The notes under the pieces were generated by a model. It was given only the letters and a program-made list of their open reading frames with translations. It did no database searches and was not told the DNA's origin. Made by a program: the position numbers and the translations under genes. 64,000 bases of DNA from an uncultured bacterium (lineage in GTDB: Bacteria > Fidelibacterota > Marinisomatia > Marinisomatales > JAHJCW01). This document shows, in pieces, positions 7,920-64,000 of this stretch; within the stretch, counting starts at the first letter, position 1; every line of letters begins with the position of its first letter. The stretch lies in assembly GCA_964634215.1 (NCBI GenBank), contig CAZWKR010000001.1, forward strand, positions 128,603 through 192,602, in the 5' to 3' direction.

Positions 7920-7939
7920 TGTGGATAACCTGTGGATAA
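7920..7939. promoter_or_regulatory. Two tandem perfect DnaA boxes (TGTGGATAA x2, 11 bp start-to-start)
   Basis: tgtggataa at 7920-7928 and again at 7931-7939 is the reverse complement of the consensus TTATCCACA. They lie at or overlap the 5' end of dnaA, downstream of an AT-rich rpmH-dnaA spacer. Confidence 0.75.
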
Positions 7940-34687: not shown

Positions 34688-34741
34688 TTTAGGCTCCTTT
34701 GGTTGATAATAATTATATATAGTGTTAATTTTATTAAAAAC

Positions 34742-34769
34742 AAAAACCCTCACAAGTGTAAGGGTTTTT
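34742..34769 (-). terminator. Rho-independent terminator after tonB
   Basis: aaaaaccct / 10-nt loop / agggttttt. On the minus strand the hairpin is followed by gttttt. Confidence 0.7.
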
Positions 34770-34791
34770 GTTTTAGTTGTTTTTAATTTAA

Positions 34792-35418
34792 TTAGTTCTT
34801 CAAAGTGAAGTGAACTGGTATCGAAATCCAAACACCAACCGGACGATCACGTTGTTTGGCGGGTTTAAACCGTGTACGCATAATAGCCTCAGCCGCCGCT
34901 TCATCTAAGCCAGTGTTAGGAACACCTTTTAGGATTATTGTTTCCTCAACAATACCTTTGTCATTTATAAATGCCTGAACAATTACTGTTCCTTCAATAC
35001 CGGCTTCTTGAGCGATTTCTGGATACACAGGGTTAATTCCAGATCTTGCAACAGGCGGATCATCGTAAGGAATAAATCTTACACGCGGACCTGTATTGGT
35101 CGGTGGTGGTGGAGCATCACCCCATGCTTCAAAATCCTCAAGCTCTGTTTCAGCAATAGTAATGTCATCATCAAGATCTTCACTTTCAGATTCAATTGGA
35201 ACTGAAGGGCGCGATGGCGGTGGCGGGCTATCGGCCTGCCGTGTTTGAGGAATGTCTATTTGTTCAATCACAATTTCCTGATGTTGAAGAAATCCATCTT
35301 CCGCAATGAAGCGAGGGAATATCAAGAATGCAGCAATAAGAATAAGAACACCCACAAGCCCCATTATTCTAACAGTTAAGGGATATTGATCCTTCAAAAT
35401 ATGTATATGTTCAACCAT
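34792..35418 (-). CDS. tonB: Energy transducer TonB
   Basis: 208 aa. N-terminal TM anchor, Pro-rich spacer (PPPPSRPSVP, PPPPTNTGP), and a C-terminal TonB domain (YPEIAQEAGIEGTVIVQAFI...). Confidence 0.85.
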   Translation of the reverse strand: MVEHIHILKDQYPLTVRIMGLVGVLILIAAFLIFPRFIAEDGFLQHQEIVIEQIDIPQTRQADSPPPPSRPSVPIESESEDLDDDITIAETELEDFEAWGDAPPPPTNTGPRVRFIPYDDPPVARSGINPVYPEIAQEAGIEGTVIVQAFINDKGIVEETIILKGVPNTGLDEAAAEAIMRTRFKPAKQRDRPVGVWISIPVHFTLKN

Positions 35419-38602: not shown

Positions 38603-39619
38603 CTAGTTTAAATGCTTTAGTATTTGTTTGAAGCCTTTTTTATCAACATTCATATTGATAGGAATTGAGTAAATTGGCAGATTGATTTCTGCAATTTTCA
38701 GAAAATCCTTTTCAGTGGTTAAAATCACATCAGCGCCTGTCATATTAAACTTATCTCTTATTTTTTGTATGTCTGATGGTGAATAATTTTTATGATCCCT
38801 GAAATTAATTGAATCAAGAATATGTATATTTAGACTTTGAACTGTTTTTTGAAATGATTCCGGGTCCCCCACTCCTGAAAACAACAACGCCTTCTTTCTA
38901 TTAAAATAATCAAGGCCGAGTTTATTGTTTTTATTATCCAAAAGATATGAAGAAGAAATTATATTCGCTTTAAACAATGGAAAGTCAACTGTATTTAGCC
39001 TTGCCATCAGTTTATTAGAGGGAGTAACAATATCACCTTTTGTAAGTAAAAGTAAATGCACACGTTTTAATGACCCCCAAGGTTCCCTAAAATTTCTGAA
39101 ACCAATTACTCGATTTTTAAATTTTGACATATTGCTGTTTACAAGTACTATATCAATATCTCTATAAATTTTACGATGTTGAAACCCATCATCTAGAATA
39201 ATGATTTCTGGATTAAATTTGTTTATTAAATATTTTCCACCACGTATACGATTTTCGTCAACTACGATAGGAATGCCTGAAAAACGTTTTGCCATGAGCA
39301 TAGGCTCATCACCAGAGATTTTCCAATCTGTCAAAATTGTTTTACCATCAGTAACAAGTTGAGTTCCGGTTGACTCCCTACCATACCCGCGGCTTAAAAC
39401 AGCCACAGTCTTATTTTGTTGCTGAAGAAACTTTGCGATTGCGATCACGGTAGGTGTTTTGCCGGTGCCACCAATTGTTATATTTCCAATACTAATAATC
39501 TTGCAAGGCAACTTTGTAGTTTTGAATAGTTTTATATCGTAAAGAAAATTTCTTATAGCGATAACCGATAGATAAATCATAAAAAGTGGAAATGAAATTA
39601 TATTTAGAATCATGTTCAT
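38603..39619 (-). CDS. lpxK: Tetraacyldisaccharide 4'-kinase
   Basis: 338 aa. P-loop GNITIGGTGKTP and DDGFQH motif. Confidence 0.9.
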   Translation of the reverse strand: MNMILNIISFPLFMIYLSVIAIRNFLYDIKLFKTTKLPCKIISIGNITIGGTGKTPTVIAIAKFLQQQNKTVAVLSRGYGRESTGTQLVTDGKTILTDWKISGDEPMLMAKRFSGIPIVVDENRIRGGKYLINKFNPEIIILDDGFQHRKIYRDIDIVLVNSNMSKFKNRVIGFRNFREPWGSLKRVHLLLLTKGDIVTPSNKLMARLNTVDFPLFKANIISSSYLLDNKNNKLGLDYFNRKKALLFSGVGDPESFQKTVQSLNIHILDSINFRDHKNYSPSDIQKIRDKFNMTGADVILTTEKDFLKIAEINLPIYSIPINMNVDKKGFKQILKHLN

Positions 39620-40263
39620 TAAACTAATTTCAAGCTTTTCGAAACTTTGTTATCTAAACTGTCAAGTTGGTTTTTTAATTTATTATTGCAGGCATTAAAA
39701 TCATCATTTATTGAAAAATACAGCGGCTTACCAAACGTTAATTCTATACGAGTAAACGGTTTTGTGACATAAAAAGTATCCCAGTTTGTAAAGCCCCAAC
39801 TACGGCGCGATCGACCCGCAACAGGTATAATCGGAATCCCGGTTTTTTGTGCTGCTCTCACTGTTCCTGGTTTCGGTATTTTAGCAGGACCCTTTGGACC
39901 GTCAGGCGTAATTGCAAAAACATTATTTGGTTTTGATAAAAATTCAACAATTTGCGGAAACACTTCACTGCCTCTTTGAGAGCTTGAGCCTCGTAAAAAT
40001 TTCCAACCTAATTTTTTTCCGACACTAACACCTAATTCCGCATCACGATGAAAACCTGCTAAAATATGGAAATGATATTTAGCCAATTTAAGATATGGAA
40101 TGAACATATTCCCATGCCAGTATGCAATGATAAATGAACTGTTTTTATTTAATAAATCTTCAACATGCTGAAATCCTGTGACTTTCCAACGACATGAACC
40201 GTATAGAAATCGAAGTAATAATGTTAATATAGAAATTTTAATATTATTTAAAAGATCGGTCAT
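39619..40263 (-). CDS. DUF374-type lysophospholipid acyltransferase-like protein
   Basis: 214 aa. The pattern AYWHG...ITPDGPKGP resembles the DUF374 family, which is commonly linked to Kdo-transferase and lipid A genes. 1-nt TAATG junction with lpxK. Confidence 0.65.
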   Translation of the reverse strand: MTDLLNNIKISILTLLLRFLYGSCRWKVTGFQHVEDLLNKNSSFIIAYWHGNMFIPYLKLAKYHFHILAGFHRDAELGVSVGKKLGWKFLRGSSSQRGSEVFPQIVEFLSKPNNVFAITPDGPKGPAKIPKPGTVRAAQKTGIPIIPVAGRSRRSWGFTNWDTFYVTKPFTRIELTFGKPLYFSINDDFNACNNKLKNQLDSLDNKVSKSLKLV

Positions 40264-40267
40264 TTTT

Positions 40268-41416
40268 CTAAGTCATAAAAGTTTTTTCTACAATTAATTT
40301 GGCAACACGTGAATAAACACCAGGAGCCCCTAATTTTTTTGTTGCCAGCTCATATCCGTTAATCATTTTCTTGCGTTCCGGCGTATCAGAAAGTAACGGA
40401 ATAATTGCTTTAACAAGGATTTCAGGAGTCATTTTATGTTGGAGGAATTCCGGTACAATTTTACGATTTGCGATTAAGTTGATTAATGATAAATATTTCA
40501 CCTTAGCCAATTGTTTTCCAATCCAATAAGTAATGTCAGATGTTTTATAACAAACAACTGCCGGTAGTCCAAGTACAGCCGCTTCTAATGTTGCAGTTCC
40601 AGAAGCGATAAGCCCGGCATCTCCATAAGCCATTACCAATCTAACATTATCTTTTTCTATATGTACAAATTTTGGAGGATCGGGTATGCTAACATTCGGC
40701 GCCTTGCCTATAATGAATTGTAATTTTGGAAAAATGTCATGCAGGTAGTTGATGGCTTCTTTAAATATTGGCCAATGCCTATCTATCTCTTGTTGGCGAC
40801 TGCCGGGTAGTAGAGTTAATAAAGGGTCACTTATTTCAAGTGAATGTTTCGAAAAGAAATCATCTTTGTTAACTTGTAGTTTTTCAATATCAACAAAAGG
40901 ATGTCCAACAAAGTCTATGTCTAATCCACGTTCATTAAACCACGCTTTCTCAAACGGAACAATACTAAGAGCTTGATCTGTGAAGCTTTTTATTTTGATG
41001 GCACGATTTTCTTTCCATGCCCACACTTGAGGTAAAATAAAATATGTTATTGGAATCTTTGACTTTTGAATTCTTTTTGCTAAACTGAGATTAAAACCGG
41101 GATAATCAATTAATATTATACGCGTTGGTTGCACATTTTTTATTTGACGAATTGTATTATTCATTATCCTGCGTATATATGGAAGATGTTTTATCACTTC
41201 TGTAAAACCAACAAAAGAAAGATTTGAAATGTGTTCAATAATTTCAACGCCTGCATCTTTCATTTTATCGCCACCATGACCGATAAATCTAATAGCGGGA
41301 TTTAGTTTCTCAATCTCTTGAACCAGCCTAGCGCCATGGATATCACCTGATTCCTCACCGGCGATAATAAATATTATTTTCTCAGGTTTGGTATTTGCCT
41401 GATTAGATGAAATCAT
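40268..41416 (-). CDS. lpxB: Lipid-A-disaccharide synthase
   Basis: 382 aa. N-terminal IIAGEESGDIHGARL matches the LpxB signature (AGEASGD). Confidence 0.9.
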   Translation of the reverse strand: MISSNQANTKPEKIIFIIAGEESGDIHGARLVQEIEKLNPAIRFIGHGGDKMKDAGVEIIEHISNLSFVGFTEVIKHLPYIRRIMNNTIRQIKNVQPTRIILIDYPGFNLSLAKRIQKSKIPITYFILPQVWAWKENRAIKIKSFTDQALSIVPFEKAWFNERGLDIDFVGHPFVDIEKLQVNKDDFFSKHSLEISDPLLTLLPGSRQQEIDRHWPIFKEAINYLHDIFPKLQFIIGKAPNVSIPDPPKFVHIEKDNVRLVMAYGDAGLIASGTATLEAAVLGLPAVVCYKTSDITYWIGKQLAKVKYLSLINLIANRKIVPEFLQHKMTPEILVKAIIPLLSDTPERKKMINGYELATKKLGAPGVYSRVAKLIVEKTFMT

Positions 41417-41440
41417 TGCTATTTATTGATAAAAGTATTG

Positions 41441-42022
41441 TTAAACTGTTGAAATTTGGGAGCGAATAAATATCAATATCAAGATTAACAATATATTTAA
41501 AAGAGTGCTTTTTTCGTGTCTTAATACTTTTTTAATACTTAACGGTTCTTGAATGGTACCGCCCTTCCATGGAGTTAATCGTGGTAAAAGTGCAGGAACA
41601 TTATTACAATATATTAGATACTCTTCATCAAACTTTTTACTCAAAGTTTCTTGTTCTAATGAGATAATCAATGAATATTGTATAATAAAAAATGTTAAAG
41701 TAAGAAATAATATAAGCCAAAGATTTGATCCTCCTGCGATAAAAACTATTCCGGAAAAATTTATCATATTTCCAAGGTAGAGGGGGTTGCGTAAATAAGC
41801 AAATGGTCCAGAAGAGCAAAGCTTTGGAGCGCCTACTTTTATTGTTCGAGTTCTTCCACCGGCATAACTCACAGCCCAAACTCTGATAGTTTCACCTATT
41901 GCTAATAATATAAAACCAAAATAAATAACAGGCTGATATGGGTTTGAAAAATATAACAGAATTAGAACTAATGGAATTGGAGTATAGCTACGATTTTTAA
42001 AAAAAAACTGTCGAATATCCAT
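41441..42022 (-). CDS. Isoprenylcysteine carboxyl methyltransferase (ICMT/Ste14)-family membrane methyltransferase
   Basis: 193 aa and multi-TM. SGPFAYLRNPLYLGN ... EQETLSKKFDEEYLIYCNNVP matches the ICMT/PEMT family pattern. 1-nt overlap with the upstream oxidoreductase gene. Confidence 0.7.
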   Translation of the reverse strand: MDIRQFFFKNRSYTPIPLVLILLYFSNPYQPVIYFGFILLAIGETIRVWAVSYAGGRTRTIKVGAPKLCSSGPFAYLRNPLYLGNMINFSGIVFIAGGSNLWLILFLTLTFFIIQYSLIISLEQETLSKKFDEEYLIYCNNVPALLPRLTPWKGGTIQEPLSIKKVLRHEKSTLLNILLILILIFIRSQISTV

Positions 42023-43014
42023 TAATGAACATCTTCTATTATCATTTTCTGAATTTTAGTAGCTACTTCCAAAGCATCTCTACCTGCTTTACCATCTACA
42101 ATTGGTTTAGACTTTCCTTGGATTGATTCAATGAAATTAGTCAGCTCAAGTCGAAGAGCGTCTATTTTTTCAATTTGGGGTTTCTCGTAAACTATAGCAC
42201 GATGTCCCCCATCATTATTTAAAGGAGCTGTAACCAATGCTTTGGAGACTTTAGTATCAGAATCGATTGCACGATATACTTCAGTGAGACCCTGTAGAAA
42301 ATCAATTGTAACGTACATATCTCGCTGAAAAAACTTGAGCTTTCTAACTTTATTTTGTGCAATTCGGCTTGAGGTTAGATTGGCAACGGTACCATTTTCA
42401 AAGCGAACTCGAGCATTGGCAATATCAACTGAGTTTGTCATGATTGAAACACCACTGGCGCGTATGTTTTTCACAGGACTGTTTACTAGAGATAGAATTA
42501 TATCAATATCATGAATCATCAGATCAAGAACAACCGGAACTTCGGTACCTCGAACTGTATATGGAGCAAGCCGTTGAACTTCAATAAATTTTGGTTTTAG
42601 CTCAAAATCTTTTAATGCTAGTAATGCAGGATTCAATCGCTCAATATGTCCAACTTGAATTACAGTTCCATTTTTTTGGGTAAGGGATAGTAAGTGATCA
42701 GCTTCGACAACTGTTTTTGTTATCGGTTTTTCAATGAAGACATGTTTGCCGGTCTTTATACAGAGTTCGGCAATTTTTGCATGCTGAGTTGTTGGAGTTA
42801 CTATTGATATGGCATCACAAGCAGAAAGTAAGTTGTCAATGCTGTTATAAGATTTTGAATTATGTTGTTTTGCTATTTCATTGGCGCGTGCAGTATCTAA
42901 GTCGTAAACCCCTACGAGGTCTGTGCCGGGCAATGATGCAAAATGCTTCACATGATGTTGACCTAAATGACCAACGCCTATTACTCCTACCTTTACCTGT
43001 TTTGATGTATTCAT
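42022..43014 (-). CDS. Gfo/Idh/MocA-family NAD(P)-dependent oxidoreductase (GnnA-like candidate)
   Basis: 330 aa. N-terminal Rossmann fold KVGVIGVGHLGQHH and the EKP motif (VFIEKPI). Located in the lipid A gene block. Confidence 0.75.
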   Translation of the reverse strand: MNTSKQVKVGVIGVGHLGQHHVKHFASLPGTDLVGVYDLDTARANEIAKQHNSKSYNSIDNLLSACDAISIVTPTTQHAKIAELCIKTGKHVFIEKPITKTVVEADHLLSLTQKNGTVIQVGHIERLNPALLALKDFELKPKFIEVQRLAPYTVRGTEVPVVLDLMIHDIDIILSLVNSPVKNIRASGVSIMTNSVDIANARVRFENGTVANLTSSRIAQNKVRKLKFFQRDMYVTIDFLQGLTEVYRAIDSDTKVSKALVTAPLNNDGGHRAIVYEKPQIEKIDALRLELTNFIESIQGKSKPIVDGKAGRDALEVATKIQKMIIEDVH

Positions 43015-47516: not shown

Positions 47517-48782
47517 CTACACTAAAATCTGTTTTGTTTCCTTTTCGGCCAAACCAGGATCTTTTACGTAAAAGATCATTATTGCCAAACCAAGGCATAG
47601 CATTCCGGCAATTATCCAAAATAACTGCACAGTACCTAGAATTTCAGAAATAGATATTGCAGCGAAGATTGTAATTAGTATAAATGGGGCTAAAAAAGTA
47701 TCAACCAGAGCCATATATAATTTGCTATCATTCTTTCCGGCAAAACTGTAAACCATATTCATTGAAGCCGGCATAAATGAACCATAACCGAAACCCAAGA
47801 ATATGAATACAGCATAAACACCAAACATTGTTGTTGTGAATAATGCCGTAAGTACAGCAAAAAGATGTGCCGTGAAAGAAAATACTATTGCTGTTTTATG
47901 CCCGAAACGGTCACCGAGTTTACCAGACAAATAACTTGAAAAGCCATAAGCAGCTACATTCAGGATCGTAAAAATACCGGCAGTACTTATATCAAAGCCA
48001 AATTTATCCTGCATAAAAACCGCGTACAAACTAATAGCAGGGTATATTACCGTTAGGAAAGCACGGGCAGTCAAATAACGTCGGAAGTTATTGTGTGTTT
48101 TGATAATTCTTTTTGTTTCGGAAAAAAACTCAGCAACAGATTTATGCGGACGTTTTGCCACCGGGGATTTAATTCTGAGACCCAAGTATAAGATTGTAGC
48201 GATTATTATCATAATTAAATAAATAAAAAATCCATAACCAAAGTTTTTTGGGAAAGTAATTGAACTGCTAAATAATATTTTAACTAAAATACCACCTAAG
48301 AATCCACCAATACTATTGAAAGCAAAAGATACACCAAAAAATGCACCGCGCGAATCATCATTCACAGCATGACGTAAAAAATCTGTCCAAATTGGAATGA
48401 GGAATCCAATTGCCAATCCATATAAAATGAAACAAGAATAAAAATAAATCCAAGCAGTAGGTCCCGTTGGAGCGAAAAAGGCAAAGACGAAACCCATCAT
48501 AAAAACCGGAGGCCAAACCAATAGATGAACCCCAACTGCAACATTTTTAATATTATGTATATTTCGTCCTATTAATGCGGAAAGAAGTTGTGGTAGTGCC
48601 ATCAAAATGGCAAAAAGTCCTGCAACGGAGACTACAACTCCCGTTGGTGCTCCTAATTGCTTTAAAAACAGCGGTACAATTGCATAGATCGTATGGAATG
48701 CCATCCCAAAACCCCAGCAAAATTCATGAGCGCTATTTAGTGTTAAGTTATGACGCAGATCTCGTTTAGACAGTCTTTCCAT
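47517..48782 (-). CDS. MFS transporter
   Basis: 421 aa and about 12 TM helices with 6+6 organisation. Confidence 0.7.
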   Translation of the reverse strand: MERLSKRDLRHNLTLNSAHEFCWGFGMAFHTIYAIVPLFLKQLGAPTGVVVSVAGLFAILMALPQLLSALIGRNIHNIKNVAVGVHLLVWPPVFMMGFVFAFFAPTGPTAWIYFYSCFILYGLAIGFLIPIWTDFLRHAVNDDSRGAFFGVSFAFNSIGGFLGGILVKILFSSSITFPKNFGYGFFIYLIMIIIATILYLGLRIKSPVAKRPHKSVAEFFSETKRIIKTHNNFRRYLTARAFLTVIYPAISLYAVFMQDKFGFDISTAGIFTILNVAAYGFSSYLSGKLGDRFGHKTAIVFSFTAHLFAVLTALFTTTMFGVYAVFIFLGFGYGSFMPASMNMVYSFAGKNDSKLYMALVDTFLAPFILITIFAAISISEILGTVQLFWIIAGMLCLGLAIMIFYVKDPGLAEKETKQILV

Positions 48783-49677
48783 TTTGCTTCTTTTGATCTC
48801 TTGTTAGCAGGATTATAGAAATTATTAGTATGGCTCCACCGGCAAATTGTATAGGCGATAATACTCGTCCGCGGATAATCCAATCTATCGCAACAGCGGA
48901 AAGAGGCCAAAACAGTTCATATATTGAAGAATGCGATGCCTTAACATGTTTTAAGCCGTAATAATAGATGAACAAAGCAACAGAACCGGTAGTAAATACA
49001 ATTAACAGTATAATTTTCCATTGCAGGAATGTTATCACATTAATTTCTGAATAACCCCGTACTGCTAACAACACAACCATTGCAATTATTGCGGTAACAG
49101 ATAATCGCAATGCAGTAACAACCGGAAACGAAAGAGTTTTTAAGGTATGCTTTCCTAAAACAGTTGAGCTGCCCCAACAAAATGCTGCAAGTAACGCTAA
49201 AAGAGCAGCGATTATCATTTTATCATCGCCTCCCACAATTGGATTTAGTCCAAAAGTGACAAAATAGCCACCCACAAGAGCCATTATTGCTAACAGTAGA
49301 AATCTTTTCGTAATACGTTCTTTTAAAACTACCGCAGCAAGCGATATCGCAAATAGCGGTTGAAATTTTTGAAGTAAAACGACAACTGATAAATCGATAT
49401 AATTGATGTAACTAAGTGCTTTTGTATAGAAGAACAAACCAAGCAATCCGCCAAACACGCTTATCCAAAAAATTGACGACCAAGCCCTTTGCCCCATCGC
49501 AAAGATTTCTTTTTTACCTTTCAGCAAGAACGGTAGGAAAACGAGAGCACCGATTATATGCTCTATTGCAACGATCAAAAATGATGAAACGTTGTACAAC
49601 TCTTGACGAAGAAAACCGTCCAAGCTCCATAACAGTGCAGCAAAAATGATTGCAAAGATTGGCAAGTACTTTTTCAT
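48766..49677 (-). CDS. DMT superfamily (EamA-like) transporter
   Basis: 303 aa and about 10 TM helices in two EamA-like halves. 17-bp overlap with the downstream MFS gene. Confidence 0.72.
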   Translation of the reverse strand: MKKYLPIFAIIFAALLWSLDGFLRQELYNVSSFLIVAIEHIIGALVFLPFLLKGKKEIFAMGQRAWSSIFWISVFGGLLGLFFYTKALSYINYIDLSVVVLLQKFQPLFAISLAAVVLKERITKRFLLLAIMALVGGYFVTFGLNPIVGGDDKMIIAALLALLAAFCWGSSTVLGKHTLKTLSFPVVTALRLSVTAIIAMVVLLAVRGYSEINVITFLQWKIILLIVFTTGSVALFIYYYGLKHVKASHSSIYELFWPLSAVAIDWIIRGRVLSPIQFAGGAILIISIILLTRDQKKQNGKTV

Positions 49678-50462: not shown

Positions 50463-53288
50463 ATGAAAACCATTTCAGATAAAATCATTATTCGCGGTGC
50501 CCGGCAGCACAACCTAAAGAATATTGATTTAGACATTCCCCGCAATAAATTAGTTGTAATTACAGGATTGTCAGGTTCAGGCAAATCATCGTTAGCTTTT
50601 GATACAATTTATGCGGAAGGACAAAGGCGCTACGTTGAATCGCTCTCCTCCTATGCGCGACAATTTTTAGGTCTAATGGAAAAACCGGACATGGATTATA
50701 TAGAGGGTTTATCGCCGGCAATTTCAATAGAGCAGAAAACAGCCGCCCGCAATCCACGCTCTACAGTAGGAACAGTTACAGAAATCCATGATTATCTACG
50801 GTTACTTTTTGCACACATTGGAAAACCACATTGTTGGATTTGCGGTAGACCAATTCAGCGCCAAACCGTACAACAAATTGTAGATACGGTTAAAAAGTTC
50901 AAAAATGATTCACGAATTTATATTTTGGCACCGGTTGTCCGTGGCAGAAAAGGAGAACATCGTGGCGTATTTGAGGAAATCAAAAAAGAAGGTTTTTTGC
51001 GAGTTCGAGTTAATGGTCGGCTACGTAACCTTGATGAAAAAATAAAATTAACCAAGACAAAAAAACACACAATCGAAGTTGTGGTGGATCGCTTAGTTCT
51101 TGAAGGGGATTTTCATGAGAGGCTTACCGAATCGATTGAGTTAGCATTAAAGATTGGTCTAGGATTGATTTTGGTGCATGAATTGCCTGACAAAGACCAT
51201 CTATTTAGCGAACATTTTGCCTGCCCCCATTGCGAAGTATCGATGGAGGAATTAACTCCAAGGATGTTCTCATTTAATTCTCCGTATGGAGCATGCACAA
51301 CTTGTGATGGACTTGGTTCTAAAATGGAAATTGATCCCGAATTAGTAGTGCCGGATAAAAAGAAATCCTTAATTCAGGGCGCAATAGCGCCACTTGGCGA
51401 ACAGCCACGTGGTAATTGGTATGGAAGCATTTTAAAAAGCCTGGCGAAACATTATAAACTAAGTTTTACAACGCCGTGGTATAAGATTGATCCTGTTGTG
51501 CGTGAAATTTTGCTCTATGGTACAGGTAGCAATCAATTTGAAATGACTTACACCTCTGATAGATGGAGTGGCACATATCGCGGCGGATGGGAAGGTACAA
51601 TCAATAATCTTATGCGACGCTATAAGCAAACCCAATCATCTCATATTCAGACTTGGATTGAACAATATATGCGTATGCAGCCCTGTCCGGAATGTAACGG
51701 AGCCCGATTAAAAAAAGAAAGCGCTGCAGTTACTGTTGGCGGTAAGAATCTCGGTGAAATTTCGCATATGAGTATTCGAACTATTTTAACATATGTCCAG
51801 AATTTAGATTTAAACGAAACTGAAAAAATAATTTCTGAACAAATATTACAAGAAATTTCAGAAAGACTCGGATTTCTAGTTAATGTTGGATTGGATTATC
51901 TTACACTAGAAAGATCAGCAACAACATTATCAGGTGGCGAAAACCAACGTATTCGTCTTGCAACGCAAATTGGATCACAATTGGTTGGTGTGTTATACGT
52001 GTTGGATGAACCTTCCATAGGATTGCATCCACGCGACAACACAAGACTATTAAGTACTTTAAAAGCTTTAAGAGATTTGGGAAATTCAATTTTGATTGTG
52101 GAACACGATCAAGAAACGATGGAGGCTTCTGATCATATCGTTGATATTGGACCCGGAGCAGGGGAGCACGGCGGTAAAATTATTTTTTCCGGCAAACCCA
52201 ACAAACTACTGCAATGCGATAACTCAATTACAGCACAATTTTTAACGGGTAAAAAAGAAATCACTTTACCCAAAATACGTAGGCACGGGCTCAATAAAAA
52301 TCTAAAGATTGTAGGAGCCAAAGGCAATAATTTAAAGAGCATTGATGTTAATTTTCCGCTAGGTAAATTTATAGTTGTAACGGGGGTTTCTGGTAGCGGC
52401 AAAAGTACGCTAATAAACGAAACTTTATATCCAATTTTAGCACGCGACCTACACAAAGCAAGAAAATATCCGTTACAGTATAAATCTATTGAAGGTTTAG
52501 AGTTATTAGATAAGGTGGTTGACATAGATCAAAAACCAATCGGGCGTACACCACGCTCAAATCCTGCGACATATACAGGTGTTTTTACTTTCATCCGTGA
52601 TTTGTTTTCACAACTTCCCGAATCAAAATTAAGAGGATATAAACCGGGAAGATTTTCATTTAATGTAAAAGGTGGACGCTGTGAGGCATGTCAAGGTGAC
52701 GGAATAATAAAAATTGAGATGAATTTTCTCCCTGATGTTTATGTTACTTGTGAAGTGTGTAATGGGAAGAGGTATAACCGCGAAACACTCGAAGTAAAAT
52801 ATAAGAGAAAAAACATTGCTGAAGTACTTGATATGTCGGTTGAGGAAGCGCAACAGTTCTTTAAAAATATCCCCTCGGTATTTAGAAAATTGACTACTTT
52901 ATGTGGGGTTGGATTGGGTTATATTCGTCTTGGACAGCAAGCGACAACGCTATCAGGTGGTGAAGCACAACGAGTAAAGCTGGCAACGGAATTATCAAAA
53001 ACCAGTAGTGATAAAACGATATATATTTTGGATGAACCTACAACAGGATTGCATTTTGCAGACGTAAAAATGTTGTTAACCGTACTTCAGACATTGGTTG
53101 ATCGTGGTAACACGGTTATTGTAATCGAGCATAACTTGGATGTGATCAAATGTGCGGATTGGGTGATTGATTTAGGCCCCGAAGGCGGCGATGCAGGTGG
53201 AGAAATAATGTTTATGGGGGTACCTGAAGATTTGGTGAAACATTCTAAATCGTACACAGGGAAATTTTTAAAAGTGAAAATAGGATAA
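50463..53288 (+). CDS. uvrA: Excinuclease ABC subunit A
   Basis: 941 aa. [28 protein letters not shown], zinc-finger Cys pairs, two ABC modules (LSGGE..R), and a second P-loop [10 protein letters not shown]. Confidence 0.96.
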
Positions 53289-53294
53289 TATCAA

Positions 53295-55340
53295 TTGAGT
53301 AAGGCAGTTTCAAATAGACTCGTTTGGTTTTGGGAAAAAGGTTATTTCTATCATTTCGCAGCGCTAATTCTATTTTTGTACTATGCCCTTAATGATAGAA
53401 TTGGAGTCATGGATTGGTTCAAAGACCCGGCATATTTACACTATATAACATCTGCCCTAAATGATTTTGATACTTTACCGTATTTTTGGTGGAATAAATT
53501 AGAACGTATTTCGTGGATACCTCCGGTAGCGGCAACTTCTTCGTTTATTTCAATACCTGAAACAACATTGTTTTCACCATTAACACCACTAATATATTTT
53601 TTGAAAGACATTGTTTTCCTTAAACTTTATCTATTCATACATGGCTTGGTTGGAATATTGGGTACAATAGCTTTGCGTAAGCGGTTGAATTGGAATGATA
53701 TTCAATTTCGAACTTTTTCTGCACTATTTCTATTTTCACCTATAATTTTTCAACATATTGCCATCGGCTATTTACCGTGGTACAATATATTTTTCTTCCC
53801 GTGGCTAATTTATTTTTTAACCTCCCAAAAGTCAATTAAAAGAATAATAGGTATTTCTGCCGTACTATCACTGGTATTATTGCAGGGTGGGGTTTATGTT
53901 TTTGTATGGTTTTTTATGTTGATAGGTTTATATACCTTGTTTCAGGGTATATTTGAGAAAAAATGGATTCGATTTGTTGAACTAGTCATGGTCTTAGGTT
54001 TGGTTTTTTTACTTGCTTACGTACGCATTTACGCTACTAGTTTAGTATATTCTGATTTTGATAGAGTGTGGTTTGAACCGGCTGGATATAACCCAATTAA
54101 TTTCTTAATCTACGCACTAATACCAACAGTAATGATTTCACCGTTTGATCTGTTTTTTTGGACAACCCTTGTTAAATTAGGAATTCCAGCTCATGATTCA
54201 GGGATTTTTTGGGGACTGGCAGTTTTTATGGTGGCAATTTTATTTATTAAATATAAAAATATATTTTACTCAAACCCTAATCCAAGAAGTCAACATTTAA
54301 ACTATAAAGCTGTGTTTTTCTCTGCTGGTATTATTTTTGCTTTCTCATTTTTTTACAATTGGTACTGGTTAATGAAGGGAATTAGTTCAATTATGACATT
54401 CCCGTTTTTTGAAAGCATAAAAAACTATGGACATCGACTGGCTATTCCCGCATATTTAGGCTTTTCTTTAGTCATGGCAAATTATGCCGATGAAATTTGG
54501 CAAGTAATGCACAAATTTACATTAGCTAAATCTTGGATTGGTGTAAAGAAATTTTTTAAAACCATTCTTGTGCTGGGCATATTTGGATTGGGCTCATTGT
54601 ATTTAGTATTAAAATTGTTTACTAAAATAATAATTGAAAAACTTTTAGAATGGATGACCGAAGCCTATAACGATTCAGGTAGTTTTTGGTTAAGAGAGAG
54701 GATGGAGGGTATAAATGAAAACAAGTTGGAGTTTTATTTAGAGCGCATTGAAAACATTTTTCACGTTTTTCAATATTGGTTATTTATGGTTTTAATGTTT
54801 TTCGCAATAATTTTTGTTTTTTTATATTTATTGAAGAGGTTTAAATATTTATTGGTTGGTGTTGTAATGCGTTTTCCTAACCTGAAATTTGAACTGCTGT
54901 TAGCATTACCACTATTCTTTGCAACGTCTAATTGGGTTGCTTTAGGGACTTCGGTTCCATTTAGCGAGCGTCCGCGACAAGAAGTGTTACCACCAAAAAT
55001 AACCATTATTAATCAGAAGGCTGATTCTGAAATTGAGACGATTGCAACTCCGCAATCATTAAAGATAATACAAGCTCAAGATGGAATACCAAATACCTAT
55101 ATATTCCCGGAATTACTTGCCAATGACCGCATATGCTTGTCGGTAGGTACAAATAATGCTACGCTTAAAGATAGTGCTGATATATTAATATTAGAAGCGA
55201 CGGATGACAGGACAATCGAAATTATTTATAAGACAAAAAAAATTAAGCAAGCACTTTGGCTCACAATTTTATCATGGATAGGTGTGATTGTGTTCTTTAT
55301 GGTGTGCAGTTTACGCTCTAGAAAACTTAGAGATGATTAA
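53295..55340 (+). CDS. Large polytopic membrane protein, GT-C-like glycosyltransferase candidate
   Basis: 681 aa with at least 14 hydrophobic helices across the N-terminal ~540 aa. An Asp-containing first loop (YALNDRIGVMDW), a soluble ~110-aa C-terminal segment and a final TM helix. TTG start 6 bp after the uvrA stop. The family is not recognised directly; the function is inferred from context. Confidence 0.5.
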   Translation: MSKAVSNRLVWFWEKGYFYHFAALILFLYYALNDRIGVMDWFKDPAYLHYITSALNDFDTLPYFWWNKLERISWIPPVAATSSFISIPETTLFSPLTPLIYFLKDIVFLKLYLFIHGLVGILGTIALRKRLNWNDIQFRTFSALFLFSPIIFQHIAIGYLPWYNIFFFPWLIYFLTSQKSIKRIIGISAVLSLVLLQGGVYVFVWFFMLIGLYTLFQGIFEKKWIRFVELVMVLGLVFLLAYVRIYATSLVYSDFDRVWFEPAGYNPINFLIYALIPTVMISPFDLFFWTTLVKLGIPAHDSGIFWGLAVFMVAILFIKYKNIFYSNPNPRSQHLNYKAVFFSAGIIFAFSFFYNWYWLMKGISSIMTFPFFESIKNYGHRLAIPAYLGFSLVMANYADEIWQVMHKFTLAKSWIGVKKFFKTILVLGIFGLGSLYLVLKLFTKIIIEKLLEWMTEAYNDSGSFWLRERMEGINENKLEFYLERIENIFHVFQYWLFMVLMFFAIIFVFLYLLKRFKYLLVGVVMRFPNLKFELLLALPLFFATSNWVALGTSVPFSERPRQEVLPPKITIINQKADSEIETIATPQSLKIIQAQDGIPNTYIFPELLANDRICLSVGTNNATLKDSADILILEATDDRTIEIIYKTKKIKQALWLTILSWIGVIVFFMVCSLRSRKLRDD

Positions 55341-55383
55341 ATAATAAGAAATATTTTCTTTTCTTGTCCTTAAATTTCAATAT

Positions 55384-56865
55384 ATGTCTATTAATAAATC
55401 TAAACAAATAGCACTTTTTGTCGATTTAGATGGCACATTAATTGCCACCGACACTTTATTAGAATCAATTGTTTTATTGTTAAAAACGTATCCACTAAAA
55501 ATATTTTTGTTAATATTGTGGGTCTTTAAAGGTAAGTCATATTTCAAAAGTAAGATTACTCAGTTTAATACAGTCCGGGCAGATTTACTCCCGTATAATG
55601 AAGAGGTATTGAATTATATAAAGGAAGAAAAAGGAAAAGGTCGCAAGATATATTTATTAACTGCGGCAAATCAAATGATTGCTGATGATGTTGCTGATTA
55701 TCTTGGCATATTTTCCGGTACTTTTGGTTCAACCGATAAGGTCAATCTATCAGGAGACCGAAAATTAAAAACAATTTTTCAAACAATTAATAATACACAA
55801 TTTGACTACATTGGTAACTCTAAAGCAGACATACCAATTTGGGAAAAATCCAACAAAATAATAATGGTAAATCCTAAGACGGGCATAAAAAACAAATTTT
55901 TAAAAAACGACAATGTTCAATTAATTAGAGTAAGTAGAAAAATAACAAAGACTAAGATTTTAGTTAAAGAAATACGTGTTTATCAGTGGGCGAAAAACTT
56001 ATTACTCTTTTTACCAATTATAATGGCACATCAGTTTAATAATGCAAATTTGTTGGCTGCAGCTTTGTGGGCATTTGTATCGTTCAGTTTTTGTGCTTCA
56101 GCAGTTTATATATTGAACGATTTATTGGACTTAGAAACTGACAGGAAGCATCCAACCAAGAAAAACAGACCACTGGCCTCAGGTTTAATGTCTGTAACAA
56201 CAGGTGTGTTGTTAATTTTTTTACTTTTATTTACAAGTGTTTTCATATCAGTTAAGATGCTTTCCACAGCATTTTTATTAATTTTAATAATTTATATGAT
56301 TTTTACTACCGCTTACTCGATTATACTTAAACAAATAATGCTGATTGATGTGATAGTATTGGGTGGATTATATACTTTACGAATTGCTGCTGGATCATTT
56401 GCTACTGGTGTAGAAGTATCTTCGTGGTTGTTAGTGTTTTCAATGTTTTTCTTCTTAAGCCTTGCTTTTATGAAAAGATATGCTGATTTAATTCTAATGA
56501 AACAGAACAACCAGAACGAAATAGCGGGAAGGGGTTACCATATTGACGATATAGATCTTGTACAAAAGTCTGGTATTACAAGTGGGTTTATGGCGATGTT
56601 AGTCTTGGCGTTATACATTAACAGTGATAATGTGATTGAGCTATACAAATCGCCGATGCTTATTTGGTTTATGATACCGGTACTATTTTATTGGTTAATG
56701 AGGATGTGGATGGTTACAAATCGAGGAGAGATGGCAGACGATCCCATTATTTACGCCATACGCGACAGGACAACATATGTTGTGATGACAATCATAGGTA
56801 TAATAATGATATTAGCGGCTACTTTAGATGGTTCTATTTTTAATAATCTTAATATAATTCAATGA
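55384..56865 (+). CDS. HAD-like phosphatase domain fused to UbiA-family polyprenyl-phosphate phosphoribosyltransferase-like domain
   Basis: 493 aa. N-terminal HAD motifs (FVDLDGTL, LLTAAN, GNSKAD). C-terminal 8-9 TM UbiA domain with NDLLDLETDRKHPTKKNRPLASG, resembling decaprenyl-phosphate phosphoribosyltransferase (Rv3806c-type HPTK..RP.A.G). Confidence 0.75.
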   Translation: MSINKSKQIALFVDLDGTLIATDTLLESIVLLLKTYPLKIFLLILWVFKGKSYFKSKITQFNTVRADLLPYNEEVLNYIKEEKGKGRKIYLLTAANQMIADDVADYLGIFSGTFGSTDKVNLSGDRKLKTIFQTINNTQFDYIGNSKADIPIWEKSNKIIMVNPKTGIKNKFLKNDNVQLIRVSRKITKTKILVKEIRVYQWAKNLLLFLPIIMAHQFNNANLLAAALWAFVSFSFCASAVYILNDLLDLETDRKHPTKKNRPLASGLMSVTTGVLLIFLLLFTSVFISVKMLSTAFLLILIIYMIFTTAYSIILKQIMLIDVIVLGGLYTLRIAAGSFATGVEVSSWLLVFSMFFFLSLAFMKRYADLILMKQNNQNEIAGRGYHIDDIDLVQKSGITSGFMAMLVLALYINSDNVIELYKSPMLIWFMIPVLFYWLMRMWMVTNRGEMADDPIIYAIRDRTTYVVMTIIGIIMILAATLDGSIFNNLNIIQ

Positions 56866-58187
56866 AACAATACTATACATCATGGGGGTTTTATCCTCCG
56901 GCAAAGCACAAAACAGCCATAAAATTAAATTGGATAGGCAATATTCCTGAAATAAGTAAAATCGAAACTTCCGTACTACCATATGGTTTGGGTCGCAGTT
57001 ATGGCGACAACTGTTTGAACAATGATAACACGTTATTAGATACATCGGGACTTTCAAGATTTATTGAATTTGATAAGGAGTCAGGAATAATCAAATGTGA
57101 AGCTGGTTTATCATTTGCAGAAATATTGCGGATAATTGTACCGAACGGATGGTTTTTTCCGGTTACCCCCGGCACAAAATTTATTACTATCGGTGGCGCA
57201 ATCGCAAACGATGTTCACGGAAAAAACCACCACATAGCAGGCACTTTTGGCAAACATGTAATCAGTTTTGAATTATTGAGATCCAATGGTAAAAAATATA
57301 TATGTTCAGCAACTGAAAACACCGAATTATATAAAACGACAATTGGCGGAATGGGCTTAACAGGACTGATCCTGTGGGCACAATTTAGACTGAAACCCAT
57401 TAAAAATTCTTATATTGATGCCGAAACAATTAAATTTAATAATTTAGATGAATTCTTTGAGCTTTCGGAAAAATCTTCAAATGATTATGAATATATTGTA
57501 TCATGGATAGATTGCACAAGTAAGGGCAAGAAATTTGGGAGGGGATTGTTTTTTCGGGGTAATCATTCTAATCTTGATAAAGCAGAATTACCACAACCAA
57601 AATCACCGAAAAGAATCCCATTTCCATTTACGGCACCGTCTATTTTATTAAATAAGCTCACGCTAAAAATTGTCAATGGAATAATTTATCATTCACAGTT
57701 TAAGAAACATAAAACGGGCATAAAACACTATGACCCGTTTTTCTATCCTTTGGATTCAATATTGAACTGGAACCGAATGTATGGCAAGAGAGGATTTTTT
57801 CAATATCAATGTGTTGTTCCATATACCGATGGTGGTGTTGCAATCAGACAGATCCTGCAGCAAATATCAAAGTCGGGAAAAGGATCGTTTTTAGCTGTGT
57901 TGAAAACAATGGGCAATGTTGAATCTCCCGGAGTGCTATCTTTTCCAAGGGAAGGAGTTACTTTAGCATTAGATTTCGCCAATCATGGTGATAAAACAAA
58001 TATATTATTTACTGAATTGGATGAAATCGTTAAATCTGTGGGCGGTGCTTTATATCTCTGCAAAGACGCACGTATGTCTCCAGAAATGTTTCGTTTCAGT
58101 TATGCCGAATGGGAAAATTTTAAAAAATATATAGATCCAAAATTTTCATCTAGTCAGTGGCGTAGAGTAAACAGAGAAAAGGAGTAG
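56862..58187 (+). CDS. FAD-dependent oxidase, DprE1-like (polyprenylphosphoryl-beta-D-ribofuranose 2'-oxidase candidate)
   Basis: 441 aa. YGLGRSYGDN, PGTKFITIGGAIANDVHGKNHH.AGTFG, GGMGLTGLI, FFYPLD..NWNRMYGKRGFFQYQCVVP and LYLCKDAR parallel M. tuberculosis DprE1 block by block (from memory). ATGA overlap with the upstream gene. Confidence 0.8.
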   Translation: MKQYYTSWGFYPPAKHKTAIKLNWIGNIPEISKIETSVLPYGLGRSYGDNCLNNDNTLLDTSGLSRFIEFDKESGIIKCEAGLSFAEILRIIVPNGWFFPVTPGTKFITIGGAIANDVHGKNHHIAGTFGKHVISFELLRSNGKKYICSATENTELYKTTIGGMGLTGLILWAQFRLKPIKNSYIDAETIKFNNLDEFFELSEKSSNDYEYIVSWIDCTSKGKKFGRGLFFRGNHSNLDKAELPQPKSPKRIPFPFTAPSILLNKLTLKIVNGIIYHSQFKKHKTGIKHYDPFFYPLDSILNWNRMYGKRGFFQYQCVVPYTDGGVAIRQILQQISKSGKGSFLAVLKTMGNVESPGVLSFPREGVTLALDFANHGDKTNILFTELDEIVKSVGGALYLCKDARMSPEMFRFSYAEWENFKKYIDPKFSSSQWRRVNREKE

Positions 58188-58190
58188 ATA

Positions 58191-58931
58191 GTGAATAATA
58201 TTTTAGTGATAGGTGCAACTTCCGCAATAGCGCAAGCATTTATAGAAATCATGGCTATTGGTGACAACAAACTATTTTTGGTCGCTCGCGATAAAGAAAA
58301 GCTAAGTGCAATAAAAAATGACCTTAGAGTAAGAAATAATACAAATTTAACCACTTTTGTTTTGGATGTAAGCTTTCGTGATGATTATGATAGTATGTTT
58401 ACTGCTGCTAAATCATATTTAGGTAAAATTGATATTATTTTAATAGCCCATGGAACTTTGCCGGATCAGTTAGAATGTGAAGCTAATATTAGTAAAGCCA
58501 TATTCGAATTTGAGATCAACACCTTAAGTACTATAGCGTTATGTTTACAATCTGCCAAAATATTTGAAATACAAAAATCTGGACTATTAGCAGTAATAAC
58601 GTCCGTTGCTGGTGACCGTGGACGCCAAAGTAATTATATTTATGGTTCAGCAAAAGGTGCGGTCAATATTTTTTTACAGGGTTTACGCAACCGGCTTACC
58701 AAATATGGTGTAAGTGTTTTGACAGTAAAACCGGGTTTTGTTGATACGCCAATGACTGCTCACATTTCAAAAACCCCACTTTTTTCTAGTCCGAAAACTG
58801 TGGCGAATGGAATCGTAAGGGCTGTTAACAAAAACAAATCAAAAGGAATTTACCTACCGGGATATTGGCGAATCATTATGCTCATTGTTAAAGCAATCCC
58901 GAGAAGAATCTTTAATAAGCTATCTTTATAG
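58191..58931 (+). CDS. Short-chain dehydrogenase, DprE2-like (2'-keto reductase candidate)
   Basis: 246 aa. VIGATSAIA Rossmann fold, YGSAKGAV (YxxxK), and a C-terminus AIPRRIFNKLSL resembling the DprE2 C-terminus HIPRSIFRKLPI. GTG start preceded by SD aaggag. Confidence 0.75.
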   Translation: MNNILVIGATSAIAQAFIEIMAIGDNKLFLVARDKEKLSAIKNDLRVRNNTNLTTFVLDVSFRDDYDSMFTAAKSYLGKIDIILIAHGTLPDQLECEANISKAIFEFEINTLSTIALCLQSAKIFEIQKSGLLAVITSVAGDRGRQSNYIYGSAKGAVNIFLQGLRNRLTKYGVSVLTVKPGFVDTPMTAHISKTPLFSSPKTVANGIVRAVNKNKSKGIYLPGYWRIIMLIVKAIPRRIFNKLSL

Positions 58932-59047: not shown

Positions 59048-60076
59048 ATGATTAACGAATTACACATGACCGATCCTGTTCCAACCGATGATGATTTAAC
59101 GGTTGAAAAAACATTAAGACCGTCACATTTTGATGATTTTATTGGGCAAAGAGAGTTGGTTGAAAGCTTAATGGTCTATATCGAAGCTGCAAATAAAAGA
59201 GAGGGGGCGCTCGATCATGTATTATTATTTGGACCACCGGGACTCGGAAAAACGACCTTAGCTAACATTGTTGCCAAGGAATTAAACGTAAATGTTCGAC
59301 CCTCTTCCGGTCCGGTTTTGGATCGTGCAGGAGATTTAGCAGGGATGCTTACTAATCTAGAACACCGTGATGTGTTTTTTATCGATGAAATACATCGGTT
59401 AAATAGTATTGTCGAAGAATATTTATATTCAGCGATGGAAGATTTCCGTATCGATATTATGATTGACAAAGGACCGGGCGCTCGTAGTGTACAATTAAAT
59501 TTAGAACCGTTCACTCTTGTTGGAGCAACGACCCGCTTAGGAAATCTAACCTCACCATTACGTGATCGTTTTGGTGTAGTGTTAAGAGTTGATTATTATA
59601 GCGATGAAGATTTGTTTCATATTGTGCAACGCTCTGCAGAAATTTTGGGGATTGAAATTGACGATGATGGCACTTGGGAAATCGCACGTCGCTCACGCGG
59701 GACACCACGAATTGCTAATCGAATATTACGCCGTACAAGAGATTATGCAGAGGTTAAAGCCGGTGGTAAGATAAATAAAGATATAGCAAAAAAGTCACTT
59801 ACAACACTTGGAATCGACAAAACGGGACTGGATGAAATGGACAGACGTATATTAACTACTTTAATTGATAAGTTTGATGGCGGACCCGTGGGCATAGGTT
59901 CGTTAGCGGTCGCCATCAGTGAGGATTCAACAACTATCGAAGATGTATATGAACCGTTTTTAATAAAAGAAGGTTTTCTCCAACGGACATCTAGGGGGCG
60001 AATAGCTCAGGAAAAAGCATTTAAATTGTTAGGAAAAAAACAAAAACTACTACAACGAGGTTTGTTTAATGATTGA
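59048..60076 (+). CDS. ruvB: Holliday junction branch migration DNA helicase RuvB
   Basis: 342 aa. [35 protein letters not shown]. Confidence 0.95.
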
Positions 60077-63162: not shown

Positions 63163-63233
63163 TGGGGCGTCGTCTAATGGTAGGACACCTGGTTTTGGTC
63201 CAGGCAGTTGGGGTTCGACTCCCTACGCCCCAG
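63163..63233 (+). tRNA. tRNA-Gln (anticodon UUG)
   Basis: A 71-nt cloverleaf folded by hand. Acceptor tggggcg/cgcccca, D-stem gtct/ggac, anticodon stem cctgg/ccagg with loop ttTTGgt, and T-arm tgggg-ttcgact-cccta. No encoded CCA. Confidence 0.88.
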
Positions 63234-63240
63234 CATAATT

Positions 63241-64000
63241 ATGAAGAATAAAAAATTAAAAATATTTGCCGGTCGAAGTAATCCGGAACTAGCAAAAAAA
63301 ATTGCTGATAACCTTGGGAAACCATTAGGCGATATGTCCATCAAGACATTTGCCGATGGTGAAATATGGGTTAAATATGAAGAAAATATTCGTGGTCGTG
63401 ATGTTTATCTTATTCAGTCGACAAACAGCCCTGCTGAAAATATAATCGAGCTATCGTTAATGATTGATGCGGCAGTTAGAGCTTCTGCAGAGCGCGTAAC
63501 AGTTGTTATACCATATTTTGGATACAGTAGACAGGATCGAAAAGATAAACCGCGCGTTCCTATTTCATCTCGTGTAATGATCGATATAATTTCTGTGATG
63601 GGAGTGGATAGAATTATTTCTATGGATTTGCACTCAACTCAGATTCAGGGTTTTGCTAAAGTTCCGTTTGATGCATTATATAGCAGATTAGTTCTATTGG
63701 AAGAAATTAAAGCGATTGGTTTAGATTCTGAAAATACGGTAGTGTTATCCCCGGATGTAGGATCGGCAGCAATGAGTCAAGCATATGCCAAACGACTAGG
63801 TATGGATTTTGCATTAATTGAAAAAAGACGTACGGGTCATAACCGCTCAAAAGCAGTACATTTGATCGGTGAACTAAATAACCAGCATGTCTTAATAATA
63901 GATGACATAATTGATACTGCAGGAACAGCTATAAATGCCGCTGAAAAGGCGGTGGAAAATGGAGCTCTTTCGGTGACTATGATAGGTACACACGCCTTAC
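63241..64000 (+). CDS. prs: Ribose-phosphate pyrophosphokinase (PRPP synthetase), N-terminal ~253 aa; runs off the window
   Basis: Hand translation from ATG at 63241: MKNKKLKIFAGRSNPELAKKIADNLG...FADGEIWVKYEENIRGRDVYLIQST...ITVVIPYFGYSRQDRK, the canonical Prs. It is absent from the ORF track because no stop lies in the window. Confidence 0.92.
   Translation, partial: MKNKKLKIFAGRSNPELAKKIADNLGKPLGDMSIKTFADGEIWVKYEENIRGRDVYLIQSTNSPAENIIELSLMIDAAVRASAERVTVVIPYFGYSRQDRKDKPRVPISSRVMIDIISVMGVDRIISMDLHSTQIQGFAKVPFDALYSRLVLLEEIKAIGLDSENTVVLSPDVGSAAMSQAYAKRLGMDFALIEKRRTGHNRSKAVHLIGELNNQHVLIIDDIIDTAGTAINAAEKAVENGALSVTMIGTHAL

Follow-up and report, generated by a model that had tools for sequence, protein, structure and literature searches.

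Polyprenyl-phosphate-linked pentofuranoses are the sugar donors of several bacterial glycosylation systems. One, consisting of a HAD::UbiA polyprenyl-phosphoribose synthase (PPPRS) and a GT-C transferase, has been characterised experimentally (Kelly et al. 2024; PMC11127046). The HAD::UbiA/GT-C architecture is described there as widespread, with homologues of DprE1 and DprE2 in loci for glycans that contain arabinofuranose (Araf) (PMC11127046). Here we compare the described systems with a cassette of four genes at 53295-58931, all on the + strand, located between uvrA and ruvB in a 64-kb stretch (the window) of contig CAZWKR010000001.1 from an uncultured bacterium. The cassette encodes a 681-amino-acid (aa) polytopic membrane protein, a HAD phosphatase::UbiA fusion, a DprE1-like oxidase, and a DprE2-like short-chain dehydrogenase/reductase (SDR). 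The names of close homologues are those of Candidatus Neomarinimicrobiota, now Fidelibacterota (formerly SAR406 or Marinimicrobia). It is likely that the cassette encodes a Citrobacter youngae-type system for glycosylation with polyprenyl-phosphate-linked pentofuranose, supplemented by a DprE1/DprE2 pair and directed at a surface polysaccharide.

The ORF15-ORF14-ORF12 system of C. youngae O1/O2 resembles the cassette in fusing a HAD domain to a UbiA synthase with the same N/D-rich motif, and in the adjacent gene for a GT-C-fold transferase, which in both cases has a C-terminal beta-rich extracytoplasmic domain (PMC11127046). In the window protein this domain is positioned like the C-terminal carbohydrate-binding module (CBM) of ORF12 (PMC11127046), the C. 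youngae member of CAZy family GT136, but it has no significant structural match. In systems of this type auxiliary epimerases set the pentose, with DprE1/E2 serving for Araf glycans (PMC11127046). In contrast to the cassette, to which no such gene is linked, C. youngae encodes a small ArnE/F-like transporter, ORF14 (PMC11127046). The window GT-C protein also has an extra C-terminal transmembrane (TM) helix, and the site of its cassette is uvrA-ruvB instead of an O-antigen locus.

The mycobacterial Rv3806c/Rv3807c/DprE1/DprE2 pathway has homologous chemistry, from phosphoribosyl pyrophosphate (PRPP) through polyprenyl-P-ribose-5-P, polyprenyl-P-ribose, and a 2'-keto intermediate to polyprenyl-P-Araf. 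Rv3806c, DprE1, and DprE2 are the best Protein Data Bank (PDB) matches of the three donor proteins of the cassette, and the GT-C family is weakly linked to the AftD GT-C domain of Pfam. The phosphatase is fused here, whereas in mycobacteria it is the separate Rv3807c, which is unrelated to the HAD family (PMC11127046). The carrier here is presumably undecaprenyl-P and not decaprenyl-P, the active-site cysteine of DprE1 is replaced by alanine, scores fall under the actinobacterial equivalog cut-offs, and no Emb or AftA-C homologues were found among the window ORFs scanned.

The group IV pilin system of Pseudomonas aeruginosa (PsPA7_6245-6251 plus TfpW) shares with the cassette a Gram-negative host, DprE1/DprE2 homologues, and a GT-C enzyme with an ArnT template; there, too, an essential dedicated Araf flippase has not been identified. 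It differs in that its PPPRS lacks the fused HAD domain (PMC11127046), while TfpW has a TPR C-terminal domain and adjoins pilA. The 681-aa protein has a beta-rich C-terminal domain, no TPR, and no adjacent pilin gene, which rules it out as a TfpW orthologue.

Genes for a probable Araf donor

The fusion comprises a HAD domain (approximately residues 12-151) and a UbiA-type polyprenyl-phosphate 5-phosphoribosyltransferase domain (approximately residues 193-479); a Pfam scan returns UbiA and HAD, and the NCBIfam model NF006088 (PRK08238) is matched over the full length (610 bits; cut-off 351). On three NCBIfam decaprenyl-phosphate phosphoribosyltransferase models the UbiA domain scores 153, 147, and 117 bits, against no more than 48 bits for the fusion on other UbiA subfamilies (prenyltransferase PRK12884, ubiA_other, heme O synthase, UbiA, and ChlG). 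It is thus closer to the decaprenyl-phosphoryl-phosphoribose (DPPR) synthases than to any other subfamily, as the Rv3806c-like motif quoted in the initial annotation had suggested, and the same scores rule out a menaquinone, heme O, or archaeal-lipid UbiA function. None of the DPPR-synthase scores reaches the equivalog cut-offs (207-474), which is expected of a fusion protein from outside the actinobacteria. The sole PDB match is Rv3806c (8j8j, E 5e-28). Three motifs are intact: HAD motif I DLDGT at residue 14, the NDxxDxxxD motif at residue 245 (NDLLDLETDRKHPTKKNRPLASG, read as NDLLDLETD), and KRYADL at residue 364. Their positions correspond to those altered by mutation in C. youngae ORF15, which has been characterised (PMC11127046). 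The HAD::UbiA architecture has been shown biochemically to make polyprenyl-P-ribofuranose (Ribf) (PMC11127046), and the fusion would produce polyprenyl-P-Ribf from PRPP.

The oxidase contains the FAD_binding_4 pfam and aligns with DprE1 in the PDB (4aut, E 2.4e-75) over residues 37-435. The NCBIfam DprE1 model gives it 377 bits and those of other FAD oxidases at most 32 bits; these scores and the end-to-end structure alignment rule out an unrelated FAD oxidase and bear out its earlier grouping with DprE1. Its motifs include GLGRSYGDN (residue 42), HGKNHH (119), and FFQYQCVVP (312). Based on these features, it is clearly a DprE1 homologue, though not the equivalog as NCBIfam defines it, and most likely functions like DprE1. 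Ala369 replaces the cysteine of DprE1 (C394 of Mycobacterium smegmatis in the PDB alignment), which we take to be the residue bound covalently by benzothiazinones, and this replacement predicts that the oxidase is intrinsically insensitive to them.

In the PDB, DprE2 (21gq_C, E 2.6e-29) matches the SDR best, as had been predicted from its C-terminus, and the alignment includes this tail; the next SDR follows at E 3.6e-14. The protein passes the cut-off of the generic NCBIfam model NF005489 (PRK07102; 281 bits vs 267) and contains GATSAIA at residue 8, YGSAK at residue 151, and IPRRIFNKLSL at the C-terminus.

As judged from their sequences, the three donor genes appear to encode every one of the four reactions that lead from PRPP to polyprenyl-P-D-Araf, and their products very probably make this compound. 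The function proposed in the initial annotation thereby survived the family and structure comparisons that the annotation itself had suggested. At the cytoplasmic face, the UbiA domain would transfer ribofuranose-5-phosphate from PRPP to polyprenyl phosphate, presumably undecaprenyl-P, and the fused HAD domain would remove the 5-phosphate. The DprE1-like flavoenzyme would then oxidise C2', and the DprE2-like SDR would reduce the 2'-keto intermediate to polyprenyl-P-D-arabinofuranose. A transporter encoded outside the cassette would flip the lipid-linked sugar to the periplasmic face, and the 681-aa GT-C enzyme would move D-Araf onto an acceptor, most likely a surface polysaccharide (O-antigen, capsule, or exopolysaccharide), with strain-specific surface variation as the outcome.

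The window also encodes PRPP synthetase, whose product is the substrate of the proposed pathway: prs follows a tRNA-Gln gene and continues past the window end. It belongs to an ispE-prs-rplY-pth arrangement conserved in relatives, and its proximity to the cassette is probably coincidental.

The four genes are tightly packed, with gaps of 43 bp (GT-C/HAD::UbiA) and 3 bp (DprE1-like/DprE2-like) and a 4-bp ATGA overlap (HAD::UbiA/DprE1-like). The initial annotation had described this packing at exactly the coordinates found here, between uvrA and ruvB, both of which we identified; all of the motifs that it quoted for the fusion, oxidase, and SDR are present, and lpxB, lpxK, TonB, and ExbB are indeed encoded in the same window. 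Since each of the four open reading frames (ORFs) has many full-length homologues, these are real genes and not chance ORFs, and homologues of the 681-aa protein align from residue 1, in support of its TTG start. This start lies 6 bp downstream of the uvrA stop codon. We found no terminator-like sites on the + strand from uvrA to the cassette end, and promoter-like sites in the cassette region are no more frequent than expected by chance; co-transcription with uvrA is possible. The G+C content of the cassette is 31.5-35%, vs approximately 37-38% in the flanks.

A predicted GT-C membrane protein family

The 681-aa protein has no match in Pfam, NCBIfam, or PDB sequence searches, and PDB sequence searches with the profile of its family or with the member P0035 returned nothing meaningful. 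An AlphaFold2 model built from a 45-sequence alignment (pLDDT 88.5, pTM 0.87) was compared with the PDB using Foldseek. The top 20 matches are all GT-C enzymes, in keeping with the earlier description of the protein as GT-C-like; ArnT (5f15, E 6e-5) is first, and PglB, ALG9, AftD, STT3, and PMT are among the others. Membership of the ArnT family (GT83) was rejected, as there is no Pfam or NCBIfam match and the resemblance is structural only.

Conserved residues in the 45-member alignment include the invariant Q153, R244, and R381 and the near-invariant D40, E89, and H154, with PET (88-90) and SPxxxQH (148-154) as conserved stretches. D40, kept in at least 90% of members, directly follows TM1; the usual GT-C catalytic residue is acidic and lies near the beginning of the first extracytoplasmic loop (PMC11127046). 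The only Pfam family recurrently matched by members is PF11847 (GT-C_AftD), the GT-C domain of the arabinofuranosyltransferase AftD, which is found in 13 of the 45 (best score 28.5 bits vs a cut-off of 26, profile positions 76-207). An exhaustive search with the family profile recovered 1192 cluster representatives at E <=1e-3, 79 of them at <=1e-30, and some of the distant relatives match the GT-C-type Pfam families YfhO and PTPS_related. No relative of the family was found in IMG/VR. An unannotated 6.6-kb phage contig contains one weak match to the UbiA domain.

The C-terminal domain of the 681-aa protein contains beta strands at residues 581-645 in the full model and has a pLDDT of 85.9 when modelled separately. 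It has no significant structural match, the best being to beta-sandwich modules of glycoside hydrolases (E 0.35). The basic tail RSRKLRDD follows the last TM helix, which by the positive-inside rule places the domain outside the cell; we infer that it is periplasmic. It possibly binds the acceptor, and a role as a CBM is a guess. We propose that the 681-aa protein, with its predicted GT-C fold, is an arabinofuranosyltransferase, and it quite probably uses the Araf donor of the cassette.

Variation at the uvrA-ruvB site

In relatives with similar uvrA and ruvB genes, a cassette is always present at the same site, but its content varies among three types (Table 1). The related locus L008 also has the type i gene order, but its contig stops within DprE1. 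Type ii cassettes lack both the HAD domain and the epimerases and are therefore predicted to supply a ribofuranose instead of an arabinofuranose donor. This variation is analogous to the difference between Ribf and xylofuranose (Xylf) in C. youngae O1 and O2 (PMC11127046). In seven independent Fidelibacterota-like loci beyond the window (L002/L009, L003, L006, L008, L010, L011, and L012), the GT-C gene adjoins that of a UbiA-type synthase.

Identity between the window and its relatives is 80-85% for DprE1, 78% for DprE2, and 64-78% for HAD::UbiA, and only 41-45% for the GT-C protein (84% in L008); divergence thus climbs steeply toward the GT-C gene while the flanks stay approximately 90% identical. 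There are at least three deep GT-C lineages: the window type, that of L010 and L002B (90% mutual identity), and the type ii group (54-68% within the group). L002 and L009 contain a type ii remnant and a type i cassette in tandem. Between their two GT-C paralogues, and in L003, there is a 197-aa ORF in which a truncated UbiA (corresponding to residues ~214-385 of the window fusion) is in frame with a 46-aa uvrA C-terminal fragment (59% identical). This ORF is a recombination scar, which shows that cassettes have been exchanged together with the 3' end of uvrA. Based on sequence comparison, the pattern is that predicted for a hypervariable surface-glycan modification island.

Table 1. Coordinates of the cassette, its flanks, other window features, and features of related loci (positions are in the window unless a locus is named).
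Feature	Position	Strand	Remarks
uvrA	50463..53288	+	conserved left boundary of variable site; 87-93% identical in relatives with different cassette
681-aa polytopic membrane protein, predicted GT-C glycosyltransferase	53295..55340	+	TTG start
C-terminal beta-rich domain of GT-C protein, residues 552-647	54948..55235	+	between penultimate and last TM helices
HAD phosphatase::UbiA fusion, 493 aa	55384..56865	+	NCBIfam NF006088, Pfam, PDB Rv3806c
DprE1-like FAD-dependent oxidase (putative polyprenyl-P-ribose 2'-oxidase), 441 aa	56862..58187	+	PDB/NCBIfam DprE1, Pfam
DprE2-like SDR (putative 2'-keto reductase, to arabino configuration), 246 aa	58191..58931	+	GTG start; PDB DprE2
ruvB	59048..60076	+	conserved right boundary of variable site; 88-94% identical in relatives
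Cassette type i	window, L002/L003/L009, L010		GT-C + HAD::UbiA + DprE1 + DprE2
Cassette type ii	L006 3909-4829, L011, L012		GT-C + short UbiA (~300 aa, no HAD, no epimerases)
Cassette type iii	L026 8001-9440		HAD::UbiA alone
197-aa ORF	L002 7319-7912 (same in L009); L003 697-1290		truncated UbiA fused to uvrA fragment
LPG_synthase_TM protein	L028 6643-7926		flanks donor genes
569-aa membrane protein	L028 11547-13256		flanks donor genes
mnmG	2429-4312	-	
mnmE	4320-5675	-	
yidC	5672-7351	-	
Candidate replication origin region	7351-7932		
dnaA	7932-9299	+	
EamA/DMT transporter	10527-11405	-	10-TM type
156-aa ORF	11510-11980		no Pfam match
345-aa ORF	17677-18714		no Pfam match
837-aa repeat protein	27319-29832		five Big_1 and four Invasin_D3 repeats
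240-aa ORF	29837-30559		no Pfam match
Nickel superoxide dismutase	34211-34831	-	
TonB	34792-35418		
Lipid A gene block	38603-43014	-	includes the next two rows
PEMT/ICMT-like membrane methyltransferase	41441-42022	-	
Gfo/Idh/MocA oxidoreductase	42022-43014	-	
EamA/DMT transporter	48766-49677	-	10-TM type
tRNA-Gln	63163-63234		
prs	63241-64000		continues past window end

Several other features of the window are listed in Table 1. The presence together of mnmG, mnmE, yidC, and dnaA indicates that the window probably includes the chromosomal replication origin region. The lipid A block consists of lpxK, a DUF374 protein gene, lpxB, and genes for a methyltransferase and an oxidoreductase that might modify lipid A or its precursors. 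The 837-aa repeat protein looks like a surface adhesin. The superoxide dismutase ORF and the TonB ORF, both on the - strand, share 40 bp at the 3' end of the latter, and the TTG start of the former may have been placed too far upstream.

Acceptor, flippase, and distribution

We give a surface polysaccharide roughly an even chance of being the acceptor. It is the likeliest candidate because distant members of the GT-C family and plasmid-borne homologues of the HAD::UbiA fusion occupy polysaccharide loci. These include a GT-C member in L004, encoded with a Wzx-type flippase, a GT2, and heptose-pathway genes, and another in L014 (Ignavibacteriota), with a Wzx-type flippase, a GT2, a GT4, and a methyltransferase. 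The HAD::UbiA homologue of a Vibrio alfacsensis plasmid belongs to an XrtA exopolysaccharide locus that also encodes a 122-aa EamA transporter, and that of a Jannaschia plasmid to an O-antigen-type locus. The initial annotation reported no pilin, arabinan, or Emb/Aft-type genes nearby; among the window ORFs scanned against Pfam, no pilin, Emb/Aft-type, or O-antigen/capsule assembly genes were found.

The same donor pathway could instead serve a protein acceptor (a pilin, S-layer protein, or lipoprotein), with the GT-C enzyme acting as a TfpW-like O-oligosaccharyltransferase or polymerase. We regard this as unlikely. TfpW is likewise a GT-C enzyme whose closest structural template is ArnT and which has no essential dedicated flippase, and the Big_1/invasin-repeat surface protein is encoded ~23 kb from the cassette; however, the GT-C C-terminus here is a small beta domain without a TPR Pfam match, and the two distant family members in L004 and L014 are in polysaccharide loci.

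Addition of Araf to lipid A or the lipopolysaccharide core, in the manner in which ArnT adds 4-amino-4-deoxy-L-arabinose (L-Ara4N), is improbable. In its favour, ArnT leads the structural matches, lipid A is produced by the organism (lpxB and lpxK are in the window), and the neighbours of the cassette are housekeeping genes and not those of an O-antigen locus. On the other hand, GT-C alleles that are 41-45% identical between flanks of ~90% identity do not fit a conserved acceptor, and the number of GT-C genes at the site varies, from none in L026 to two in L002. There is also no sequence match to ArnT or PMT_2 in Pfam or NCBIfam, and ArnT aligns with a TM-score of 0.34-0.40 and 12% identity.

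It is very improbable that the 681-aa protein is instead a polymerase (Wzy-like or ligase-like), a flippase, or some other membrane enzyme, with the Araf donor used by an enzyme elsewhere. Family members do occur without linked PPPRS or DprE genes and within loci of the Wzx type, which would be expected to encode a polymerase, and the donor module occurs without an adjacent GT-C gene in Myxococcus and, as HAD::UbiA, in L026. Against this reading, the gene is linked to that of a UbiA-type synthase in seven loci besides the window, and a lipid-phospho-sugar transferase fits both the near-invariant Asp that follows TM1 and the structural matches, all of which are to GT-C enzymes.

For the preferred assignment, a pentofuranose system with a surface polysaccharide as acceptor, a flippase would also be expected. 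ORFs between 70 and 220 aa in length that encode three or more TM helices were sought across the whole window, and none of them resembles the small ArnE/F-like transporter. Related cassettes, too, contain no small flippase-type gene. The sole flippase candidates in the window are two full-length EamA/DMT transporters (Table 1); the second, at 48766-49677, is syntenic in relatives whatever their cassette type, and nothing links either specifically to the cassette. The missing linked flippase weakens strict membership of the three-component type and leaves the mechanism unweakened.

A number of observations weigh against this assignment. The search for small transporters recovered no four-TM ORF (ArnE/F, GtrA, or SMR type) in the cassette or the window, and the absence of glycan-assembly genes on either side of the cassette leaves the acceptor without a direct pointer. 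The score of the oxidase is below the actinobacterial DprE1 equivalog cut-off of 500 bits, and the SDR scores 166 bits on the DprE2 model NF053786, under its cut-off of 250. For the 681-aa protein, Foldseek TM-scores to solved GT-C structures are just 0.3-0.4. Comparison by hhalign of the GT-C family profile with the membrane proteins encoded beside HAD::UbiA in L028, L029 (Vibrio plasmid), and L030 (Jannaschia plasmid) showed no similarity. Finally, the surroundings of the GT-C family genes in Anaerolineae lack PPPRS and DprE genes over a distance of 8 kb, so the family as such is not confined to a polyprenyl-P-Araf donor.

The donor genes themselves are widely distributed. The HAD::UbiA fusion has >6500 homologues, with source names spanning Planctomycetia, Acidobacteriota, Aminicenantes, Ignavibacteria, and Myxococcus; the fusion is carried by 105 plasmids and a DprE1-like gene by 65, mostly of Rhizobium. 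The order HAD::UbiA-DprE1-DprE2 also occurs in Myxococcus landrumensis and one other genome. In L028, from an unrelated 3.6-Mb genome, these three genes are flanked by genes for an LPG_synthase_TM (MprF flippase-like) protein and a 569-aa membrane protein that has neither a Pfam match nor similarity to the window GT-C; this pair may be an alternative pairing of flippase and transferase.

The initial annotation considered an Araf donor pathway unusual outside Corynebacterineae, where it was best known from TfpW. This view has been superseded by Kelly et al. 2024 (PMC11127046) and by the number of homologues. The novelty of the cassette was thus overstated, because a 2024 paper had already described such systems in Gram-negative bacteria (PMC11127046). 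What is new here is the unannotated GT-C family, the lack of a linked flippase, and a hypervariable site flanked by housekeeping genes in an uncultured marine phylum. We tentatively suggest, as a possibility somewhat short of probable, that the 681-aa protein founds an undescribed family of GT-C pentofuranosyltransferases without a dedicated flippase, and that uvrA-ruvB is a serotype-like island of Fidelibacterota where Araf-type, Ribf-type, and synthase-only cassettes and deeply divergent GT-C alleles are swapped, plausibly under phage pressure; such swaps would diversify the surface of an abundant marine lineage.

Understanding of the pathway itself, which has already been described, is unchanged. 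If the assignment is correct, an unannotated GT-C family would join the enzymes that use polyprenyl-P-pentofuranose donors, and D-arabinofuranose, usually seen as a mycobacterial cell-wall sugar, would also decorate marine bacteria of the SAR406/Fidelibacterota type. For marine ecology, uvrA-ruvB would be a single chromosomal site at which close strains diverge in the chemistry of their surface glycans; variation of this kind governs grazing and susceptibility to phages.

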